NCBI GenBank assembly: GCA_965201155.1
Contig: OZ241752.1
Location: forward strand, 328,755-392,754
Direction: 5' to 3'
Length of the DNA stretch: 64,000 nucleotides
Origin: Alphaproteobacteria bacterium
Lineage (GTDB): Bacteria; Pseudomonadota; Alphaproteobacteria; UBA7887
Part shown: in pieces, positions 40,760 through 61,157 of the stretch
Layout: each line of letters starts with the position of its first letter
Numbering within the stretch: the first letter of the stretch is position 1
The notes under the pieces: generated by a model
Database searches by the model: none
Told to the model about the DNA's origin: nothing
What the model saw: the letters and a program-made list of their open reading frames with translations, nothing else
Program-made: the position numbers and the translations under genes

Positions 40760-42040
40760 TCACTCACCTTCGGCACGGGACGGATGCGGCGTCAGGCGAA
40801 GGCGGGTGATGCGGTTCGTCTCGCGCCCGACAACCTCGAAAACATAATCGGAGAGTGTGAACGTCGCGCCCACATCCGGAATTGTCTCGGCGAGGTTCAG
40901 GATCAGACCGGCTGCGGTAGAGGCTTCTTCGTCAGGCAGCCTGCTGTCCAGCGCACGGTTGAGGTCGCGAATGGTTACCGCGCCGTCGATAAGGAATGAA
41001 CCGTCAGTCTGGCGCTGGATCCCGCTGGTCGAAAGGTCGTAGGCGTCGTCATATTCATCGGCGATATCGCCCACGATTTCCTCGAGAATGTCTTCCAGGG
41101 TCACCAGGCCCTGCAAGGTTCCGTATTCGTCGACCACGAGCGCGAAATGCTCCCTGCGGGCACGGAACGCGGCCAGTTGTTCGGCCAGGCTGGTGGTGTC
41201 AGGCACAAATTTCGGCTTGTAGGCAAGTTCGAGTATGTCGTTGGTGTCGGGCGCCGCGTCGCGGCCATGAAGCGCGCGCAGCAAGGTTCTGGCGTGCAGT
41301 ATGCCGACAATGTTGTCCGGGTTGCCGCTCCACAGCGGAATGCGCGTGAAGGGGCTGTCGAGAGCAGCCGCAATCAGTTCATTCACCGGCAGATTGGCGT
41401 CGACGGTGGCCATGTTTTTTCGGTGTGTCATGATCTCCCCGACCTCGACTTCGGCCAGGTCGAGAATGCTTCGCAACATGTCACGATAATGTTTGCGAAC
41501 GCGTCCTTCCCGTGCGTGGAGATCGAATATCCCGCGTAATTCCTCGGTGGCGGAGGGGGCGTTTTCGGCCGTCGCAGGGCCGAAAGCGCGCAGGATGAGA
41601 TCTACCAGCCGATGAACGAGACGAATGACGGGAGCCAGCACCGCCACCAGCACGCGAAGACCCGGCGCAACCTGGAGGGCCGCCCGGTCTGATGCCCGGA
41701 TAGCGAAGGTCTTCGGCAGCACCTCGCAAAACACGAACACCAACAGCGTCATGGAAACGGTGGCGTACACGACACCCGACTCGCCGAACAGGCCGATCAT
41801 CAGACTGGTGGCAAGCGCAGACGCGAGGATGTTGACCGCGTTGTTGCCGAGCAGGATCGCGCCGATAAGGGACTCTCGCCGATCGATGAGGCGCCCGGCC
41901 AGGCGGGCGCGCCTGTCTCCGTTTTCCGCAAGCTGGTGGAGATGCGGGCGCGAAGCAGCTGTGAGCGCAGTTTCGGACCCCGAAAAGAATGCCGACAGCA
42001 GAAGCAGGATCAGGATTGCGGCGAGCGTGAGCAGAATCAC
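40760..42040 (-). CDS. HlyC/CorC family transporter (DUF21-CBS pair-CorC_HlyC)
   Basis: N-terminal four-TM DUF21, tandem CBS domains and a C-terminal CorC_HlyC domain. 426 aa. Confidence 0.8.
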   Translation of the reverse strand: MILLTLAAILILLLLSAFFSGSETALTAASRPHLHQLAENGDRRARLAGRLIDRRESLIGAILLGNNAVNILASALATSLMIGLFGESGVVYATVSMTLLVFVFCEVLPKTFAIRASDRAALQVAPGLRVLVAVLAPVIRLVHRLVDLILRAFGPATAENAPSATEELRGIFDLHAREGRVRKHYRDMLRSILDLAEVEVGEIMTHRKNMATVDANLPVNELIAAALDSPFTRIPLWSGNPDNIVGILHARTLLRALHGRDAAPDTNDILELAYKPKFVPDTTSLAEQLAAFRARREHFALVVDEYGTLQGLVTLEDILEEIVGDIADEYDDAYDLSTSGIQRQTDGSFLIDGAVTIRDLNRALDSRLPDEEASTAAGLILNLAETIPDVGATFTLSDYVFEVVGRETNRITRLRLTPHPSRAEGE

Positions 42041-42065
42041 GGAGTTTGCCAGATTTCTGTGGGGC

Positions 42066-43187
42066 TCAGGGTTGCAGCGCTGCTTCCAGTACGGACAATA
42101 TATCGGTATCGGCCGCGTCGCGATAAAGGAAGGCTTTCCCGATCCCGTGCACGAGTATCAGGGTGGGGCGGCCATCGCGCACTTTCTTGTCGAAGGCCAT
42201 ATGGGCAAGCAGGTCGCGGGCGCACCAGCGGCCTGCCAGTTGCTGCGGCGGCGCCGCAGGCAGGCCGACCGCCGCAAAGTGTCTGAGCACACGGCGTTGT
42301 TCCACCGGCGGACAAAATCCGAGTTTGACCGACAGGTCAAACGCCATGGCAGTTCCCATGGCAACCGCTTCGCCGTGCACGAGAGCGTCACCGTAACCTG
42401 CTTCACGCTCCAGCGCATGGCCGAACGTGTGGCCGAGATTGAGCAGGGCGCGGCGCCCGGTTTCCCGTTCGTCTTCCGCAACAACCCTTGCCTTGGCTCC
42501 GCAGCAGGCGGCGATAACGTGGACGCGTTCCGCGGCGCCTCCCGCAAGAAAGGCGGCCGCATGGTCTTCCAGCCAATCGAAGAAGTCCGGATCATCGATC
42601 AACGCATATTTGACGCATTCGGCGTAGCCGGCCAGCCGCTCGCGGGCCGGCAACGTATCCAGCGTGTCGATATCGGCGAGGACACAGCGCGGTTGGAGGA
42701 ACGCCCCGATGAGGTTCTTCCCGTGAACGGAGTTGACGCCGGTCTTGCCGCCGACGGAGCTGTCAATCTGTGCAAGCAGTGTTGTCGGAGCCTGGATGAA
42801 GTCGATTCCGCGGAGCGTAACCGCAGCCGCCACGCCCGCAAGGTCGCCAACGACCCCTCCTCCGAGTGCAATGACGGCGTCCCGGCGTTCGATGCGCTCT
42901 GCCAGCAGTGATTCGACCAGCTTGCCAAGTGCGTCCCAGGACTTGGTAGCCTCGCCGACCGGAACAACATGGGTACTGACGGCAAAGCCCGCACTTTCGA
43001 GGCTGGCACGCAGCGGTTCGAGGTACAGCAGAGCAACATTTTCGTCGGTCACGATCGCTGCGCGCCGCCCCGAAAGGACCGGCGCAAGCAATGGCCCGGC
43101 ACGCCCGAGGATGCCGCTGCCGATCACGATATCGTAGCCGCGCGCGCCGAGATCGACGCGAACGATACGCGGCGAAGGACCGCTCAT
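42066..43187 (-). CDS. aroB: 3-dehydroquinate synthase
   Basis: DHQS family motifs (GGGVVGDLAG, …HGEAVAMG…). Overlaps aroK. Confidence 0.9.
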   Translation of the reverse strand: MSGPSPRIVRVDLGARGYDIVIGSGILGRAGPLLAPVLSGRRAAIVTDENVALLYLEPLRASLESAGFAVSTHVVPVGEATKSWDALGKLVESLLAERIERRDAVIALGGGVVGDLAGVAAAVTLRGIDFIQAPTTLLAQIDSSVGGKTGVNSVHGKNLIGAFLQPRCVLADIDTLDTLPARERLAGYAECVKYALIDDPDFFDWLEDHAAAFLAGGAAERVHVIAACCGAKARVVAEDERETGRRALLNLGHTFGHALEREAGYGDALVHGEAVAMGTAMAFDLSVKLGFCPPVEQRRVLRHFAAVGLPAAPPQQLAGRWCARDLLAHMAFDKKVRDGRPTLILVHGIGKAFLYRDAADTDILSVLEAALQP

Positions 43188-43744: not shown

Positions 43745-44016
43745 GACGGTTCCGCTCCCGGCGCGGGGGCGCCGCTGCTGCGTTGAATCGCCGAACCCCT
43801 GCCGATAGACTGCGCGTGCTTCGACCCGACTATAGCACAGTCTGCGCAAACGGGTTCAACGGATTCCCCTTGAGGACCGACACGCCGCTAAGCTCATGTC
43901 TACCCTAAGGCGCCTTATCGCATTGCTGATTCTTGTTCTACTCGCCGGGGGCGGCTATTTTCTCACGACGTGGGACATTCCGGCTCCTACGCAGCGTGTG
44001 GAAAAGCCCATTCCCG

Positions 44017-45777
44017 ATGACCGTTTGCCGCGCTAGAGCTTTCTCCGCTACGCGCCGCTTGGCGGGGGTTGGCGCATTGTTATGGGTGGGTGCTGCTGCG
44101 GCTGCCGCGCAGGACGCCGGAACACCGGTCCAACTGGTGCCGCCGGGAACTGATACCGGCGAGGAGTCACGCCCCGCGGAGCGCGCTTCGCCGGGCGGGG
44201 TCACGATCGGCAGGATCGCGCCACTATCCAGTGACGCCGCGGGAGCAGTAGGCAGCGGCGTTTTTGGCGCCGATTTGTGGCAGGGAAGCAGTGACATTCG
44301 CCTGTCGGACCTGATGGACCGGCTGCCGCTGCCAGCGCGCTCACCGGTGATGCAGAGCCTGATGCGGCGGCTCTTGGCCAGCGCCGCGGCGCCGGCACCC
44401 GGTGAATTGGCGGAGGGCGACTTTGTCGCCCGGCGGTTGGCGCTGCTGTTGCAGCTTGGAGCATTTGAAGAGGCCGGACAGATCGCCGAACTGGCCGGCG
44501 AGCCGGCAGGGTCGTGGTCGCAAGCCGAAGCGCTGCTCTGGCGCGGCGAATTGGAACGGGCATGCCATATTGTCGGCACAGCGCTCACATCGCAGCCCTC
44601 GCGGCAATGGCGCCGCGTACTGGTTCTGTGTCAAGCCCATCAGGGCAATGTTGCCGCGGCGGAATTGACCTTGACCCTGCTTTATGATGATCCGGCGGGG
44701 GTGGACGACAGCTATTTGCCGATTGCCTCCCATTTGCTTGGACATATTGAGGTCGAGGCGGCAGTTCTCGACGATGCAGTGAGCTTCGCTGCGAGCCTTG
44801 CCGGCAGCGCGCCGTTGGACAGCGGCGCAATCTCGGGTCTCGGTCCCGCCGCAGCGCGCGCATTGGCGCTCTACACCAACGCGCCTGAGGATGTGCGCGT
44901 GGCTGCAGCAGAGCGTGCTGCAGCACTCGGTTCACTGTCACCGGAGGAACTCGGCGAAGTCTGGCGCTTGCCGGCTTTTACGGAAGACACTTTGCGCAGC
45001 GTTGATCCAGCAAACCCTGCACGCGGCGAAGCGGAACTCGCCGGCCCCATGGCCCGCGCGTTGCTTTATCAAGGCGCCGGCTTTGCCGAGGATAACGCCC
45101 TGCGCACCGAATTGCTGCAGGCGTTGTGGTCGTCCGCACCCGACGCGCCAGGACTGTCTGCATTTGCCGGCGCGTCCCTCGTGTCGGCGCTGACCTTGAC
45201 CCCGGATGGCAGCAGCCCATCCTTCGCAGCCTTGGCCATACGCGCGCTGGCCGCAACCGGGCGGGGTGATGCTGCAGCGACATGGTATCGCGCGCTGGCC
45301 GGGTCGCAGGAAACCGACGGCACGGGGGCACTGTGGCACGGCCTGCCGGTGATCGCGGTTTTCGGAGCAGATAACGGTGTGATGTGGAACACGGACACCG
45401 CCATTCAATGGTGGAACGGCGCACCGTCTGATGTCTCACCGGAGGCGCACGCCATCAGGGCTGATCGGGTGTTCATGGTTCTTGATGCGTTGGGGCATAA
45501 CCCTGGCGAAGCGGCGTGGGCGCTGTTTTTCGATGGGCCGCGCGATATCGAGGCAACCATGCCGCATATCGGCCTGCGTTACGCCCTGCGCGATGCGGTG
45601 CGGGGGCGGCGAACCGGCGAAGCCTTGTTGCTGGCGTTGATCGTGCTCGGCGAGGAAGGGCCCGCGGGCGCCAGCGCCATAGCCGTCGGATCTGTCATTC
45701 GCGCCCTTCGCGCTATCGGCCTCCCGGAAGATGCTCGGGCCATTGCTGTTGAGGCATTGGCTGGAGATCATTGGTGA
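44017..45777 (+). CDS. Conserved hypothetical secreted Ala-rich protein upstream of xerD
   Basis: Signal peptide MTVCRARAFSATRRLAGVGALLWVGAAAAAAQD from the ATG at 44017. 586 aa, helical and Ala/Leu-rich. No recognisable catalytic motif. Confidence 0.5.
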   Translation: MTVCRARAFSATRRLAGVGALLWVGAAAAAAQDAGTPVQLVPPGTDTGEESRPAERASPGGVTIGRIAPLSSDAAGAVGSGVFGADLWQGSSDIRLSDLMDRLPLPARSPVMQSLMRRLLASAAAPAPGELAEGDFVARRLALLLQLGAFEEAGQIAELAGEPAGSWSQAEALLWRGELERACHIVGTALTSQPSRQWRRVLVLCQAHQGNVAAAELTLTLLYDDPAGVDDSYLPIASHLLGHIEVEAAVLDDAVSFAASLAGSAPLDSGAISGLGPAAARALALYTNAPEDVRVAAAERAAALGSLSPEELGEVWRLPAFTEDTLRSVDPANPARGEAELAGPMARALLYQGAGFAEDNALRTELLQALWSSAPDAPGLSAFAGASLVSALTLTPDGSSPSFAALAIRALAATGRGDAAATWYRALAGSQETDGTGALWHGLPVIAVFGADNGVMWNTDTAIQWWNGAPSDVSPEAHAIRADRVFMVLDALGHNPGEAAWALFFDGPRDIEATMPHIGLRYALRDAVRGRRTGEALLLALIVLGEEGPAGASAIAVGSVIRALRAIGLPEDARAIAVEALAGDHW

Positions 45778-55610: not shown

Positions 55611-57122
55611 ATGTCGTCATGGCTCAGTGAACGTGAGCAACGGCTTGTGGAAGGCGCCGAGAGTCTCGAATTCGACTCTCCTGTACCAACGCAAATCGTT
55701 TCCAACGGCGAGTATGTCCCGCCAAAGCAGTCCACGAAACAAAAGCAGGTCGAAGCGCGCATCAAGGAATTGGCGGAAGAAAACGCCAAATACCTGGGCA
55801 TGTCCCGGCGCCAGTTCCTGCAAACCAGTTGCGGCATGGCCACCGCCTTCCTGGCGATGAAGGAAGTCTATGGCACTGATGCCTTCCGCGTCAGCGACGC
55901 CGAGGCCCGCGACCCGGAAATGATGCTGGAACGCGCCAACGCGCTGTCCGGCCAGTTCATTTTCGACGACCAGACACACTTCCTGCGCGACGATTTCGCC
56001 CACGAAGCCATTCTCGGCCTGGGTGAGTTCGCTGCTGAGCACTGGAATCCCAAGCTCAAGGAAGAAGGCGTTACGCTGGAGCGCTACAAATTCGAGAACT
56101 ATATCCGGGAACTCTGGTACAATAGTGACACCAAGATGGCCCTGTTGAGCGGCGCGCCGTTTGACGACCCGACCTGGTGGCTGTTGCACAATGACCAGAT
56201 CGTGCGTGCGCGCGACATGGTCAACGACTTCGCTGGCTCGACCCGTATGCTCGGCCACGCCGTCATCACACCTGGCCAGCCCGGCTGGATGGAAGAAGCC
56301 GAACGGGCGATGGACGAATTGAAGCCGAATTCGTGGAAGTCCTACACGATCGGCGACCCGCTTGCTCCGTCGAAATATCCTTGGCGGCTCGATGATGAAG
56401 ACCTGATGTACCCCTTCTACGAAAAATCGCTGAAGGCGGGCATCAACACGATCTGCATCCACAAGGGCTTGCTGCCGGTCGATTACGAACGCTCGTTCCG
56501 TGGCGTTTGGGAATATGCGACTTGCTGGGACATCGGCAAGGCCGCGCAGGACTGGCCGGAAATGAACTTCGTGATCTATCATTCCGCGCTGCGCGCCTTC
56601 CTCGAACTTCCCGACCAGATGTGGGATGCGTTCCAGGCTACCGGCGAGATGAAGTGGGCCGACGAACTCGTCCGCATTCCGGAAGAATTCGGCGTCAACA
56701 ATGTCTATGGCGAGCTGGGCACCACCTTCGCCAACTCCGCCGTCGCGCATCCACGCTTCTCCGCAGCGTTCGTCGGCTCGCTCGTCAAGGGCCTCGGCGC
56801 CGACCACGTGGTCTGGGGCAGCGACACGGTGTGGTATGGTTCGCCGCAATGGCAGATCGAAGCAATGCGCCGCCTGGAAGTGCCGGAGGACATGCAGGAA
56901 AAATATGACCTGCCGTCCCTCGGCGGACCGAACAGCCTGACCAAACAGGCGATCTTCGGCCTCAACTCCGCGCGTATCTACAATCTCGACATGGATAGCG
57001 CGACCAACCAGCCGAAGCTGCCGGACTTCTCGAACGACCGCATCGGTGAGTTGGCACAGGCCTTCCGTGAATCCGGCGAGGGACCGAGCAACAAGCGCTA
57101 CGGCTACGTGCGCCGCGCCTAG
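55611..57122 (+). CDS. Amidohydrolase-2 (PF04909-like) family metal-dependent hydrolase with a twin-arginine motif
   Basis: A strong RBS (GGGAGGAG) precedes the ATG at 55611. The SRRQFLQTSCGMATAFLAM TAT-like motif lies at residues ~64-82; an alternative ATG at 55800 would place it N-terminal. TIM-barrel hydrolase hallmarks (…ICIHKG…VIYHSA…VVWGSDTVW…). Confidence 0.65.
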   Translation: MSSWLSEREQRLVEGAESLEFDSPVPTQIVSNGEYVPPKQSTKQKQVEARIKELAEENAKYLGMSRRQFLQTSCGMATAFLAMKEVYGTDAFRVSDAEARDPEMMLERANALSGQFIFDDQTHFLRDDFAHEAILGLGEFAAEHWNPKLKEEGVTLERYKFENYIRELWYNSDTKMALLSGAPFDDPTWWLLHNDQIVRARDMVNDFAGSTRMLGHAVITPGQPGWMEEAERAMDELKPNSWKSYTIGDPLAPSKYPWRLDDEDLMYPFYEKSLKAGINTICIHKGLLPVDYERSFRGVWEYATCWDIGKAAQDWPEMNFVIYHSALRAFLELPDQMWDAFQATGEMKWADELVRIPEEFGVNNVYGELGTTFANSAVAHPRFSAAFVGSLVKGLGADHVVWGSDTVWYGSPQWQIEAMRRLEVPEDMQEKYDLPSLGGPNSLTKQAIFGLNSARIYNLDMDSATNQPKLPDFSNDRIGELAQAFRESGEGPSNKRYGYVRRA

Positions 57123-57174: not shown

Positions 57175-57220
57175 GGAAAGGGGGCCGCAACTTGCCACCC
57201 CCTTTCCCGGCTTTCATTTG
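57175..57220 (+). terminator. Hairpin (ggaaaggggg…ccccctttcc) plus a T-rich tract downstream of the amidohydrolase gene
   Basis: 10-bp stem, 13-nt loop, followed by cggctttcatttg. Confidence 0.4.
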
Positions 57221-57253: not shown

Positions 57254-57784
57254 ATGCGATTGGCACGTCACCTTGGTGCTGCAATGGTCGCCGCCGCAAT
57301 CGGTTTCGGCGCTGCAGCCGCGGGCGCCGCCGACGTGATGACCATCAACGCCGAGAAGGCTCGGCTCTACTTTGGCGGTCTCTACCCCTATTACTCCCTC
57401 TATCTGAAGGGAATCCCGGAAGACCTCGAAGACAACTGGGTGCAGGCGTCGCACTATGCAGTGCTCGACGTGCATGGCGGCCCGGAAGCCGGGCAAAGCG
57501 TGGTGGCCCTTCTCACCCCCACCAGCGGTGCCAGCCCGCAACCCGAATGGTGCGTAACCGAGGGCGCCGGCGAATTTGGCGGTCACGGTCCCGTGTGCAT
57601 CAACACCGATGCACCCAAATCGATGAATCAGCTTCGGTTCAAGATCAGGGCGCAATATGCCGACGCTTCGGTCGACCTGCCGGCAGAGTTTCAGGATCGC
57701 GTTTGGGCAGAATATCCCGAACTCCCCGGCCGCCGCGAGAGCGAAGTGTTCGGCCCCGTCGACCTTCACATCATCCTGGACTGA
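57254..57784 (+). CDS. Hypothetical secreted protein (176 aa), function unknown
   Basis: RBS AAGGAGAAG precedes the ATG at 57254. Signal peptide MRLARHLGAAMVAAAIGFGAAAAGAAD. Two Cys residues (CVTEGAGEFGGHGPVC). Followed by a strong intrinsic terminator. Confidence 0.5.
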   Translation: MRLARHLGAAMVAAAIGFGAAAAGAADVMTINAEKARLYFGGLYPYYSLYLKGIPEDLEDNWVQASHYAVLDVHGGPEAGQSVVALLTPTSGASPQPEWCVTEGAGEFGGHGPVCINTDAPKSMNQLRFKIRAQYADASVDLPAEFQDRVWAEYPELPGRRESEVFGPVDLHIILD

Positions 57785-57818
57785 CAGCGCCTCGGCACCC
57801 CCCACCCCACCCCTGACC

Positions 57819-57856
57819 CAGCGCGGCGGCCCCCCAGGACCGCCGCGCTTTTTTTG
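57819..57856. terminator. Rho-independent terminator (agcgcggcggcc-ccccca-ggaccgccgcgct + TTTTTTT)
   Basis: 12-bp GC-rich stem followed by a 7-T run, read directly from the sequence. It lies between convergent genes (57254-57784 on + and 58066-60264 on -). Confidence 0.7.
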
Positions 57857-58065
57857 TCAGCGATACGCCGGCGCAGGGGCTTGTCCCATGCCGCTGCCGG
57901 GCGACTCGCTTTACTCCCACAGGGCGTCCGACCTGGCGCTTCTGTCAGAGGCCGCGCCAGCCAGATGTCCGAAAGGACATGAACAAGAAGTGTCGATGCA
58001 TTTGCCCGCTGGATAGACCAACACCCGCATACCGAAATACCGCCGCCATTCTGCTCAGCCCCTCA

Positions 58066-60264
58066 TCATTCGGCAGGCGCAGCAGGAGTCAGTGCTTCCA
58101 ACCGCTTGCGCGTGGCAACCAAAGGCGGGCATTGGTGGTCATCGTAATAGGTCACCTGGCAGTCCAGACAATAGAAGCATTCATTCATGTCGATACGGCC
58201 GCTGCGGCGGATCGCCCCCGTGGGGCACACCACCTCGCAGCGATGACAGGGATTGCCGCATTCCGCCCGGCGCTTGAGCCAGTCAAACATGCGAACGCGC
58301 CCAAGAATGGCCAGACCCGCCCCCAGCGGACACACAAACCGGCAATAAAACCGCTCTACAAACAAGCCGATTGTCAGCAACCCCACCGCATACGCCACCG
58401 CTGCGGCAGGCGCATCGAACCGGAATATGATCGCCGTCTTGAACGGCTCCACATTCGACCCCGCCATCGCCAGATCGTACGCAAAGAAGGTCAGCACCAG
58501 CAGCCCCAGAAAGATCACATATTTCACCGCAAACAGCCGTTCCTGAAGCTGGTCAGGAATGCGAATCTGCGGCACTTTCAGCGCCACCGCCGCCTTGTTG
58601 AGAAGCTCCTGCAGGGCGCCGAACGGGCACAGCCAGCCGCAGAAAATCGCCCGCCCCCACAGGAACAACAGCACGAACACGAACGCCGTCAGAATGAAAA
58701 TCAGCGGCTCGACCATGAAGAACGCCCAGACAAAACCGCTCTCCAGCGACTGCGCGATATTCAACAGGCCGATCACCGTAAGCTGCGCACCCGCATACCA
58801 ACCCAGCCAGCCAAGCACCCACGCCAGAAACGCTATGCGAACCCAGCGATGCAGCGCTCGATGCCGGGAAATCACATCCTGCAGCGACAGGATCAACAGC
58901 AGCACGCCGAGCGTGACTGCGAGAATGAGGATCCGGTCCTGGTTCGATTCCCAGATCGGACGCCAGTCCGGGCCGTCCATGAGCATCCCCGCGCCGCCTG
59001 CTGTTTCCGGGTCGGGTTCCGGTTCAGGCGCCGGCTCCGGCAACAGCACGCGCTCCGGCACACGATATTCCAGCGGCACGGCAACGGTCGCCGGTATATC
59101 CTTGCGCGTGTCGCCCTCAATGATCAGTTCAAAGCGCCAGGGCTTGCCGGGGTCCAGGCCGTGTTGCGGCGAATAGAAGAACAGGCCGCGCTCCACCATG
59201 TCCGGCGCGTCCTTGGCGTGATGGAAGGGCAGTGTTTTCAGAAACTCGGGGCCGAAGGGCATCTCCTGTCCATCCTGCAGAAAACGCAGGCGGGCAAATT
59301 GCTCCGGCTGGTCCGCAACCGGATCCTGAAACCCGAAGGCGCCGTCGGTCGCCACGAACAGGATGAGATCGTCTATCCCCCGCCCGGACACATACTGGTC
59401 CCACCACGTGCGGCCCAGAATGTTGATCCCGATCGCCGGCGGCGACACCACCGCTACATACAAATCCACATAAGGGTCTTCATCCGGCGACAGGCGCACC
59501 TTTCTGGGAGGACGAACATCCGGTACGGCTTCGAAGGCGGCAGCAACGTCGCCCACCGTCAGCCGCAGCGCGCCGACTGAGCCTTCCTCGATCAATTCCG
59601 GCCAGGTGCGTGGTTCGAACGTGTCGAAATCGACGTTGCGCCGCGGCAAGGGCTGACTCAGCGAGATACCGCGGCTGCGCGCTACCGCGCGCGCAGCGCG
59701 AATGATCGAATCGCTGAACAATATCGAGCTGGTTGTCGTCCGCGACACGGCGTCAACCGGGATCAGGCCCGACACATCACCGGCGGTGCCGCGCATGGCA
59801 AACTTCGCGCCCTCCTCAGCCGCACCTGACAGGGCAAGCACAATGCTTATGCCCCGGCGCACATCGATGCCCGGAAATTGGGTGAGATAGTGATGAAAAT
59901 CATCGTCGGTAATACCGAGAATCGCGATCGGCTCCACATGCATGGTGAGCCGCGCGCCGGCAATCCGCCCGTCCAGCCCAAGCCCTACCACCAGGTGAAA
60001 CGGTCGCTTCGAGTATCCGACCCCCTCCACCACATCATATTGCTCATAGATATAGCCAATGATTTCGCCGTCTTTCAGCGCTGCGGCAGCCGGCGGCTCA
60101 CCTTCGACGGGGCCGAAGGAGTCCGCTTCGGGGAATACAAGTTCCAGCAGCCCGGCGTCGAGATAACCCTCGAGGTTCGTTGCAGCAGGCTCTTCCTGTC
60201 CAGCAGCCGCGCCTGCTGCCGCCAATGCCGCCGCCATCAAGAACCGAAACCAGACTGCCCCCAT
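58066..60264 (-). CDS. NosR/NirI-family membrane-bound FMN-binding iron-sulfur protein
   Basis: Start reset to the ATG at 60264 (RBS AGGAGG). Signal peptide, large periplasmic N-domain, ~6 TM helices with CX3CP motifs (CPFGALQELL, CPLGAGLAI), and a C-terminal 2x[4Fe-4S] ferredoxin (CGNPCHRCEVVCP…CFYCLDCQ). Confidence 0.75.
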   Translation of the reverse strand: MGAVWFRFLMAAALAAAGAAAGQEEPAATNLEGYLDAGLLELVFPEADSFGPVEGEPPAAAALKDGEIIGYIYEQYDVVEGVGYSKRPFHLVVGLGLDGRIAGARLTMHVEPIAILGITDDDFHHYLTQFPGIDVRRGISIVLALSGAAEEGAKFAMRGTAGDVSGLIPVDAVSRTTTSSILFSDSIIRAARAVARSRGISLSQPLPRRNVDFDTFEPRTWPELIEEGSVGALRLTVGDVAAAFEAVPDVRPPRKVRLSPDEDPYVDLYVAVVSPPAIGINILGRTWWDQYVSGRGIDDLILFVATDGAFGFQDPVADQPEQFARLRFLQDGQEMPFGPEFLKTLPFHHAKDAPDMVERGLFFYSPQHGLDPGKPWRFELIIEGDTRKDIPATVAVPLEYRVPERVLLPEPAPEPEPDPETAGGAGMLMDGPDWRPIWESNQDRILILAVTLGVLLLILSLQDVISRHRALHRWVRIAFLAWVLGWLGWYAGAQLTVIGLLNIAQSLESGFVWAFFMVEPLIFILTAFVFVLLFLWGRAIFCGWLCPFGALQELLNKAAVALKVPQIRIPDQLQERLFAVKYVIFLGLLVLTFFAYDLAMAGSNVEPFKTAIIFRFDAPAAAVAYAVGLLTIGLFVERFYCRFVCPLGAGLAILGRVRMFDWLKRRAECGNPCHRCEVVCPTGAIRRSGRIDMNECFYCLDCQVTYYDDHQCPPLVATRKRLEALTPAAPAE

Positions 60265-60392
60265 CAGAACCCTCCTGTGATGCCGCACTGCTCGCCTTTC
60301 CGGCTCGCCCGCACTAATGTTTCGCGCCCTTGCGTTCAATGCAACCGCGCGGCTAGCTTTGGCATTCGGACGAGATTACGACAACGGGGGAA

Positions 60393-61157
60393 ATGTTGGC
60401 CATGCGCCCGACCATTCGCTGCCTCGTCGTGTTTTCTGTCGCCTTGGTAGCCGCGGCAGGCGCCTTGGCGCAATCGCCGGAATTGCGCGCCAAGCATATG
60501 CGCGTGATGCAACTCTACGCCACCGGACATAACGAGGAAGCCGCCATCGTCGCGCGCGAGGCGCTGGACCTTGGAATCGGAGAATTCGGCGAGGTTCATC
60601 CCAGCACCGCCGCGCTGATGGTCAATCTGGCCGACCTGCACGCTGTGCTGGAAGAATGGCCGGAAGCGGAAACACTTTTCCGCCGCGCTGCCGCCGTCCG
60701 CACCGAAACGCTCGGCGCGACGCACCCCGATACCGGCGCCGCTCATGCCGGCCTGGGAGACGCGCTGGCCCGCCAGGAACGTTTCGGCGAGGCCGAAACC
60801 AGCTATTGGAATGCACTGCACGCATTGGGGGTGGAAGTCGCACGCAATGTCCATGTGGTGGATGAAATTAGCCTGCGCGCCGGCCTTTATCGCGCGCGGG
60901 CACTCTACTACCGTGCCCACCAATACGCCGCCGCCGACCGGCTCGACGAAGCGGAACTGATTTACCAGAGCGTCATTGCCGTGTTCGAGGCGAACGCCAC
61001 CGTCGACCGCTCGGAAGTCGTCGCCGCCTTGGGTGCGCGCGCCGCGCTGCTGCGAAAGCTGGGCCGGGATAGTGAAGCCCTCGAACTCGAACAATACGCC
61101 CAGGCTGTGAATGAGGGCCGGGCAAGCTGCCCGGCCGGGCTTTTCACCGTGTGCTGA
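60393..61157 (+). CDS. Secreted tetratricopeptide-repeat (TPR) protein
   Basis: Signal peptide MLAMRPTIRCLVVFSVALVAAAGALAQS followed by ~4 TPR-like helix pairs. Confidence 0.55.
   Translation: MLAMRPTIRCLVVFSVALVAAAGALAQSPELRAKHMRVMQLYATGHNEEAAIVAREALDLGIGEFGEVHPSTAALMVNLADLHAVLEEWPEAETLFRRAAAVRTETLGATHPDTGAAHAGLGDALARQERFGEAETSYWNALHALGVEVARNVHVVDEISLRAGLYRARALYYRAHQYAAADRLDEAELIYQSVIAVFEANATVDRSEVVAALGARAALLRKLGRDSEALELEQYAQAVNEGRASCPAGLFTVC

Follow-up and report, generated by a model that had tools for sequence, protein, structure and literature searches.

The window analyzed here, a 64-kb stretch that forms part of a ~2.93-Mb alphaproteobacterial contig, encodes a membrane protein of the NosR/NirI family, hereafter the NosR-like protein, in the company of three further genes. 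Convergent with the NosR-like gene are those for an amidohydrolase-fold protein with a twin-arginine motif (the enzyme) and for a small secreted protein (small176), and divergent from it is the gene for a secreted tetratricopeptide repeat (TPR) protein (Table 1). The initial annotation of this DNA had given these genes and their convergent and divergent order, and all were present as listed. Comparison with related loci suggests, with moderate confidence, that the NosR-like protein is the membrane electron-transfer part of a conserved periplasm-facing module, and that the neighboring enzyme belongs to it.

Table 1. Genes and sequence features of the NosR-like locus, in window coordinates.
Feature	Coordinates	Strand	Basis
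Amidohydrolase (Amidohydro_2, 503 aa)	55611..57122	+	Start from gene callers and family conservation
N-terminal extension of the amidohydrolase, 63 residues	55611..55799	+	Alignments
Twin-arginine motif S-R-R-Q-F-L-Q, residues 65-71	55803..55823	+	R66/R67 invariance
10-bp perfect inverted repeat, amidohydrolase/small176 spacer	57175..57207	+	Read from sequence
small176 (176 aa, predicted secreted)	57254..57784	+	Open reading frame and signal peptide
Intrinsic terminator of the amidohydrolase-small176 operon	57821..57855	+	Stem-loop and T7, folding energy
NosR/NirI-family flavo-FeS membrane protein, 732 aa, clade A1	58066..60264	-	NCBIfam NosR model
Di-cluster ferredoxin region, C-terminal, predicted cytoplasmic	58126..58260	-	Eight invariant Cys
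Second CX3CP motif, C641-R-F-V-C645-P646	58327..58344	-	Invariant in alignment and in genuine NosR
First CX3CP motif, C542-G-W-L-C546-P547, transmembrane core	58624..58641	-	Invariant in alignment and in genuine NosR
Variant flavinylation motif, D171-A-V-S-R-T-T177	59734..59754	-	D171/T177 invariant in 26 members
TPR protein (predicted secreted)	60393..61157	+	Pfam TPR_12/TPR_10

The NosR-like protein matched the NCBIfam NosR model (NF046105) nearly from end to end (E = 4.3e-168, 561 bits, profile positions 19-680 of 680). Pfam PF27538 (NosR) and PF12801 are precomputed for an identical protein, and Fer4_5 was matched by a Pfam scan. By hydropathy, the protein starts with a signal peptide and has its transmembrane core at residues 447-636. 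Both CX3CP motifs were invariant among 26 sequences, the window protein and 25 relatives, as were the eight C-terminal cysteines (669, 673, 676 and 680; 696, 699, 702 and 712), and all of these are shared with genuine NosR; Pfam Fer4-type matches to this C-terminal region were weak. The NosR/NirI architecture proposed in the initial annotation is borne out, the FMN-binding domain being a predicted part of it, and database entries for the family are routinely named as NosR/NirI nitrous oxide reductase regulators. A single-sequence search of the PDB with the NosR-like protein found no relative.

As genuine comparators we used the NosR proteins of Agrobacterium tumefaciens and Rhodobacter capsulatus (loci L097 and L098), which lie in an annotated nosRZDFYL-apbE order and are 35-41% identical to the window protein. 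Against the NosR model these two scored 807 and 790 bits, and the window clade and its paralogs scored 561-640 bits, a gap consistent with a separate clade. The equivalog cut-off of NF046105 is 1000 bits; a score below it was rejected as proof that a protein is not NosR, as both genuine proteins likewise fall short of it. At that setting the model would leave true alphaproteobacterial NosR unnamed (L097, 8944-11154; L098, 8911-11079).

A second difference lies in the flavinylation motif, whose canonical form is D-x-x-[ST]-G-A-[ST] (PMC12052999). D171 and T177 were invariant among the 26 family members, and T177 is the predicted acceptor of flavin mononucleotide (FMN). Genuine NosR keeps the canonical S-G-A-T; in the window's larger group, clade A, the motif is D-A-V-S-R-[AT]-T. 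Pfam FMN_bind gave no match to the window protein with the threshold relaxed to E <= 10. Relatives with the S-R-A-T motif have an adjacent gene for the flavin transferase ApbE, and because of this dedicated neighbor members with the variant motif are very probable ApbE substrates.

The neighborhoods of NosR-like genes pointed repeatedly to the enzyme. Nine homologs with 45-100% identity were sampled one by one, and seven of them, including the window protein, were linked to it. In two of these loci (L009 and L096) the gene order was that of the window, with a second NosR paralog divergent from the amidohydrolase gene in addition; three others (L012, L094 and L095) carried NosR->ApbE->amidohydrolase on a single strand, and in L093 two tandem amidohydrolase genes were followed by NosR->ApbE. 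The same-strand NosR->ApbE->amidohydrolase arrays are tight, with gaps of ~100 nt.

A metagenome scan with an alignment of clade A gave 80 loci, which were sorted into clades by identity; evaluable loci were those with the enzyme and those in which the NosR-like gene was flanked by 3 kb or more of sequence in each direction. In clade A1, to which the window protein belongs, the amidohydrolase was found in 22 of 30 loci (22/24 evaluable) and ApbE in 25, and the usual order in loci with the enzyme was NosR->ApbE->amidohydrolase. Clade B, the paralog encoded divergently upstream, had the amidohydrolase in five of seven loci (5/5 evaluable) and ApbE in none. The A and B proteins are only ~38-40% identical to each other. 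At least four arrangements were seen. The enzyme gene may end a NosR->ApbE->amidohydrolase array, or a pair of amidohydrolase genes may precede NosR->ApbE; NosR-B may lie divergently upstream of an amidohydrolase->small176 pair; and such a pair may face a convergent NosR-A, in loci that have or lack ApbE. Because the linkage is kept across these arrangements and in two distant NosR clades, it suggests selection rather than inherited synteny.

The remaining NosR-like clades of the scan serve as an internal negative control. They comprise 36 loci (within L142-L178), 32-38% identical to the window protein, with ApbE immediately downstream in 21 and the amidohydrolase in none (0/12 evaluable); besides ApbE they had no third gene in common, and nosZ was absent. 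Since 27 of the 29 evaluable A1 and B loci carried the enzyme, compared with 0/36 here, the association is clade-specific. The NosR-like gene had been described as an orphan that stands alone, a description that does not survive these counts.

Searches for the usual partners of NosR gave a consistent picture. By tblastn with genuine NosZ, NosD, NosY and NosL we found no match in the window or in ~176 related loci, and NosZ or NosD was present in none of the 80 metagenome loci. Pfam scans of the 20 largest other open reading frames of the window returned only housekeeping or general metabolic genes. Neither cytochrome cd1 nor copper nitrite reductase was recognized by Pfam in the neighboring and largest window reading frames, where no NirS-directed tblastn was made, and unbiased clustering of neighbors at related loci revealed neither of these enzymes. 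These results agree with the earlier statement that nos and nir genes are lacking nearby.

It could be argued that the protein is a NosR or NirI encoded in trans, serving a cluster of nos or nir genes at another site of the 2.9-Mb genome, so that its adjacency to the enzyme is irrelevant. Its complete NosR architecture with all redox motifs, the prevailing annotation of the family and the fact that the searches for nos genes cover the 64-kb window of this genome would all fit such a role. We nevertheless consider it highly improbable, given the limited identity to nosZ-adjacent NosR, the lower profile score, the S-R-[AT]-T motif, the lack of nos genes at related loci, the dedicated ApbE of the clade and the amidohydrolase in nearly all of its evaluable loci.

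The same association was seen from the side of the enzyme. Scanning species-representative genomes with the amidohydrolase alignment yielded at least 529 positive stretches, of which 80 loci were kept, with enzymes 63-93% identical to that of the window. These fell into a closer group of 23 loci and a Bradyrhizobium/Reyranella/Hyphomicrobiales group of 57. In all 23 loci of the closer group small176 is encoded ~150 nt downstream of the enzyme gene on the same strand, and in 15 of them a NosR-like gene lies within 10 kb, so that the co-occurrence of small176 with NosR-like genes proposed in the initial annotation withstood this check. At L041 and L087 the amidohydrolase gene adjoins that for ApbE. 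When the neighbors at the fetched loci were clustered all against all, in an unbiased way, the NosR-like family ranked first (29 copies in 23 loci) and small176 second (20 loci). No other neighbor recurred in more than 13 loci, and those that did recur were housekeeping or unrelated genes such as IF-2, PNPase, TruB, RbfA, S15 and ABC transporters; this clustering yielded no other conserved partner.

The enzyme reaches the gathering score of Pfam PF04909 and has the TIM-barrel fold of the amidohydrolases. Its family is very abundant: 8000 scored candidates included 5493 matches, with 67-91% identity for the best 120, and the only names found for it were "uncharacterized protein" or "TIM-barrel metal-dependent hydrolase". 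Searches of the PDB with the single sequence and with a profile built from the enzyme alignment found no relative, and a plasmid collection held no close homolog (best identity 29.5%), so that it supplied no annotated copy from a cultured organism.

The amino terminus of the enzyme is unusual. The twin-arginine motif begins at residue 65, behind a conserved extension, and R66 and R67 were invariant in 99 of 99 family copies; the Pfam TAT_signal match is weak (14.4 bits against a cut-off of 22.7), and the hydrophobicity of the h-region that follows is below the transmembrane threshold by hydropathy. The motif noted in the initial annotation, which had placed a twin-arginine amidohydrolase just upstream, is thus real and conserved, but the formal signal model does not recognize it; we infer that the enzyme may be exported by the twin-arginine translocation (TAT) pathway. 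The 63-residue extension is nearly invariant, with W4, L5, S6, R8, E9, L12, G15, A16, E17, P24, P26, T27, Q28 and V30-E34 fully so (consensus WLSEREQRL..GAE...P.PTQIVSNGEYLPP.Q). Conservation of this degree is far above that of a normal signal-peptide n-region, and the segment may dock a chaperone or cofactor-insertion factor, or it may be a cytoplasmic interaction domain.

Within the barrel, whose strands were assigned from a structure model, at least 97 of 99 copies conserve D119, Q121 and H123 (beta-1), H216, K243 (beta-4), C282, H284 and K285 (beta-5), H324 (beta-6), and E368, D398, H399 and D405 (beta-8). These residues resemble an amidohydrolase metal site, and we regard them as a candidate for one. 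Redox chemistry on this fold is known from the amidohydrolase-related dinuclear oxygenases (AROs: AibH2, PtmU3, SfbO and DitZ). These enzymes have the PF04909 fold, depend on an electron donor protein (PMC10811679) and are marked by an N-terminal D-x-H and a C-terminal D-x-P-H-x-[D/E] motif (PMC13154177). Assignment of the window enzyme to the AROs was rejected: beta-1 reads Q121-T122-H123, with Q in 39/40 copies, D.PH.[DE] occurs in 0/40, and beta-8 reads W-G-S-D405-T-V-W.

Also encoded at the locus is small176, which has a Sec-type signal peptide and two cysteines, C100 and C115, that are invariant across 48 homologs within the motif SPQPEWC...C, as well as the TPR protein, which has a signal peptide by hydropathy and TPR_12/TPR_10 repeats. 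Both had been called secreted in the initial annotation, and small176 Cys-containing, and these calls stand. No Pfam domain was found in small176. Its structure model is a confident beta-sandwich (predicted local distance difference test score 85.6) for which no informative structural relative was found. Encoded immediately downstream of the amidohydrolase wherever it occurs (23/23), and absent from the Bradyrhizobium, Reyranella and Hyphomicrobiales enzyme group, small176 is by its gene position the enzyme's downstream operon mate, and it is likely an accessory subunit in the window's lineage. At two marine alphaproteobacterial metagenome-assembled genome loci (L034, 2711-3232 and neighbors; L035, 5861-6370 and neighbors) two to three tandem small176 paralogs lie between the enzyme gene and ApbE-NosR. 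At two genome loci (L017 and L024) a NosR that is ~40% identical to the window protein and ~28% to genuine NosR directly follows small176.

These proteins raise the question of whether small176, perhaps in the role of a disulfide or metal carrier, or the TPR protein is the true redox partner, with the amidohydrolase incidental. A role for small176 would fit its secretion, its two invariant cysteines, its position between the enzyme and NosR-A in eight loci (the window, L009, L014, L017, L024, L034, L035 and L096) and its tandem copies directly beside ApbE-NosR in L034 and L035; the TPR gene for its part has a divergent promoter region in common with the NosR-like gene. However, small176 is missing from most loci that keep NosR->ApbE->amidohydrolase (L012, L036, L048, L093-L095 and 20 of the 22 enzyme-carrying A1 metagenome loci), and it never occurs without the amidohydrolase directly upstream. 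Adjacency of the TPR gene to the NosR-like gene is confined to close relatives (the window, L007/L008, L014, L015 and L096), and none of the 80 metagenome loci has the TPR gene. We therefore judge it very unlikely that either is the principal partner. The initial annotation had proposed a periplasm-facing electron-transfer module with a neighboring secreted partner; the module is strongly supported by comparative genomics, but the emphasis placed on small176 and the TPR protein is not, the constant partner being the amidohydrolase.

In the module that we favor, all parts are predicted to face the periplasm, the NosR-like, small176 and TPR proteins by virtue of their signal peptides and the enzyme by virtue of its twin-arginine motif. 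By analogy with NosR and PceC, electrons would pass between the membrane or cytoplasmic side, where the CX3CP core and the two [4Fe-4S] clusters are situated, and an FMN bound covalently to Thr177, which would have been attached by an ApbE encoded elsewhere in the genome. From the FMN they would move on to a complex of the amidohydrolase and small176, where two uses can be envisaged. They could provide reducing equivalents for catalysis, or they could keep an oxidation-prone metal or cysteine site, such as the invariant C282-x-H284, reduced in the periplasm. The latter would parallel the proposal that NosR and NosX sustain NosZ activity in vivo (PMC7660919; PMC12052999). Flavinylation, contact between the proteins and the direction and purpose of electron flow are all inferred here. 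A more far-reaching version, which we offer tentatively and consider possible but doubtful, is that the enzyme represents a redox metalloenzyme of a new type, periplasmic, unlike the AROs and driven by the NosR-like/ApbE chain; it would then be a new reductase or oxidase, with a respiratory or detoxifying function, on a "hydrolase" scaffold, with small176 as a novel-fold subunit and the 63-residue segment as a signal for cofactor insertion or chaperone docking.

Several observations weigh against a coupling of the two proteins, the link between which is drawn from gene neighborhood only. In the Bradyrhizobium/Reyranella/Hyphomicrobiales group a NosR or ApbE gene lay within 10 kb at only 4 of 57 loci, most Bradyrhizobium genomes carry the enzyme without a nearby NosR, and even in the closer group eight of the 23 loci lacked a NosR-like gene within that distance. 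Linked and unlinked copies of the enzyme are identical in their candidate active-site residues, with a difference at one trivial position; because the enzyme is mostly unlinked and these residues do not differ, NosR may not be obligatory for its chemistry. The nearest structural relatives of the enzyme are non-redox lactonases, decarboxylases and hydratases. On the NosR side, the marine subclade A2 had neither the amidohydrolase (one evaluable locus) nor ApbE in its seven loci, and some other clade A members (L010/L011 and L099) have ApbE with no amidohydrolase within reach. The window itself contains no apbE. Replacement of Gly by Ala in the flavinylation motif lowers flavinylation of a model substrate (PMC12052999), and here the Gly is replaced by Arg. 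Lastly, the genes of the window form convergent units separated by a strong terminator, and the NosR-like protein and the enzyme are therefore not co-transcribed there.

These points could be taken to mean that the two proteins are functionally independent, the NosR-like protein serving another periplasmic redox process and the enzyme being an ordinary hydrolase of the lactonase or decarboxylase type, with regulation, niche or hitch-hiking making them neighbors. The many enzyme copies without NosR, their unchanged active-site candidates, the non-redox character of the closest folds together with the missing ARO motifs, and the separate transcription units of the window would be expected on this account. 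It is harder to reconcile with the linkage in nearly all evaluable A1 and B loci when the other NosR-like clades have none, with the recurrence of the same enzyme beside two NosR clades in at least four architectures that include tight same-strand arrays, and with the lack of an alternative conserved partner in the neighbor clustering. On balance we regard functional independence as unlikely and retain the module of NosR-like protein and enzyme as the better explanation.

The terminator behind small176, described as strong in the initial annotation, is real: a 9-bp G+C stem (GCGCGGCGG/CCGCCGCGC, 57821-57848) encloses a 10-nt loop and is followed by T7, and its folding energy of -28.7 kcal/mol (z = -6.2) was equaled by none of 200 shuffled sequences. 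A consensus terminator scan missed it because of the 10-nt loop. In the spacer between the enzyme gene and small176, a perfect 10-bp inverted repeat (GGAAAGGGGG, a 13-nt loop, then CCCCCTTTCC) could form a hairpin in the RNA of the operon, with a role in processing, stability or attenuation. A scan of the region for sigma-70 promoters gave zero matches, and FNR/Dnr-type boxes (TTGAT-N4-ATCAA), a possible sign of control by anoxia, were matched 12 times against 13 expected by chance, none of them in the relevant promoter regions.

The rest of the window is ordinary chromosomal DNA of ~64% G+C that includes topA, dprA, the gene for RNase R, secA, cobST, kdtA, hydantoinase genes and an insertion sequence (IS) element. 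The IS transposase gene (DDE_Tnp_1 and DUF772; 24502-25566) lies inside a dip in G+C content, 0.593 against ~0.64 for the window. Three large open reading frames with high G+C at third codon positions, at 25714-27990 (-), 41625-42911 (+) and 43933-45777 (+), had no Pfam match at E <= 1e-5, and may be real but unknown proteins, or frames called in error. The 3' end of the TPR gene overlaps by 47 nt (61111-61157) the start of a gene resembling 2-oxo-hept-4-ene-1,7-dioate hydratase (FAA_hydrolase family), after which comes a gene for an M17 leucyl aminopeptidase. Only contigs identical to the window (L001-L006) have the hydratase-like gene beside that for the TPR protein; at L014 the two are ~3 kb apart.

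Other NosR-like loci showed features of their own. The A2 proteins (L111, L114-L116, L118, L120 and L137) are 41-45% identical to the window protein and ~30% to genuine NosR, and their recurrent neighbors, recognized by eye from the sequences, are rubrerythrin-like and Fur-like genes. At L093 (4534-9583) genes for a PCuAC-like copper chaperone (PF04314) and for SCO1/SenC precede the tandem amidohydrolases, all of them directly upstream of NosR-like/ApbE, which hints at copper handling at this one locus. At L007/L008 (4821-8642) an extra NosR paralog with the canonical S-G-A-T motif has for neighbors a TetR regulator and a linalool dehydratase/isomerase-like gene (Ldi; PF18566). The characterized Ldi is a periplasmic enzyme that requires reducing conditions, and this pair may be another case of a NosR-like protein with a periplasmic partner that does not look redox-active.

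Proteins of the NosR type are almost universally annotated as nitrous oxide reductase regulators, and this clade is very probably something else, so that such annotation can mislead gene surveys of the N2O cycle. Two NosR clades are now assigned, by gene neighborhood, a specific partner, an uncharacterized twin-arginine enzyme family present in at least 529 species, and what had been an "orphan" gene becomes a testable system of three or four components, in which small176 is the optional one beside the NosR-like protein, ApbE and the amidohydrolase. A redox-active enzyme would carry the redox chemistry of the amidohydrolase fold into the periplasm, with an electron donor different from those of the AROs. 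If the enzyme is not redox-active, NosR-like proteins may have a new role in keeping a periplasmic hydrolase reduced and active, echoing the question of what NosR contributes to NosZ.

Among known systems, the NosR of nosRZDFYL(X) clusters, of which the Pseudomonas stutzeri protein is the studied prototype, has the same length and full-length architecture as the NosR-like protein, as seen in the clusters on A. tumefaciens pAtCFBP6623a and R. capsulatus pRCB133. The two have in common the signal peptide, a periplasmic domain predicted to bind FMN at a conserved Thr, the transmembrane core with two CX3CP motifs and the eight C-terminal cysteines for two [4Fe-4S] clusters, and relatives of the NosR-like gene resemble nos clusters in their dedicated adjacent flavin transferase of the ApbE/NosX type. 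Unlike NosR, the NosR-like gene is never found beside nosZ, nosD, nosF, nosY or nosL; its neighbor is a twin-arginine amidohydrolase-fold protein instead of a copper N2O reductase.

By function the NosR-like protein probably falls into the class of NapH-like flavinylated systems, in which a multi-helix FeS protein (PF12801), bearing an FMN-binding domain at its extracytosolic N terminus, is encoded in apbE-containing clusters (Meheust et al., 2021, eLife; PMC8238504), although apbE, adjacent in 25 of the 30 A1 metagenome loci, is absent from the window. NapH-like and NosR-like flavinylated proteins are used in modular fashion with varied extracytosolic oxidoreductases, and the partners and reactions of most are unknown; the partners named are nos, pce, nirS (133 genomes) and exaA (172 genomes) (PMC8238504). 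The main text of that study names no Amidohydro_2-type partner, and in the portion of its supplement covered here the one PF04909 entry is cytosolic and unrelated. The literature found on NosR together with amidohydrolases consisted of unrelated co-mentions only, with no Amidohydro_2-type partner reported. A precedent for a NosR-family membrane flavoprotein that is flavinylated by ApbE and serves a TAT-exported enzyme outside the nos system is PceC/RdhC (PMC5928378). Proteins of the PceC type accompany corrinoid/FeS reductive dehalogenases in anaerobes, whereas the present partner is an amidohydrolase-fold protein, and most of its hosts are Alphaproteobacteria from the sea or from soil.

The enzyme likewise differs from the described members of its fold. 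The AROs lack an export signal and receive electrons from a Rieske ferredoxin (PMC10811679; PMC13154177), whereas the window enzyme has a twin-arginine motif, a NosR-like partner and neither ARO motif. To the COG3618/LigI-type Amidohydro_2 enzymes, such as 2-pyrone-4,6-dicarboxylate lactonase and L-fucono-1,5-lactonase (PDB 4d8l, 4dlf, 2ffi and 3irs), it has no detectable sequence similarity; compared with them it is ~200 residues longer, carries the N-terminal extension, the twin-arginine motif and large insertions, and shows Q-x-H at beta-1, where they have H-x-H, and the invariant Lys243 at beta-4. The electron-transfer chassis is a known one, and the novelty lies in the partner family, in a novel-fold accessory protein and in the clade-specific form of the flavinylation motif.

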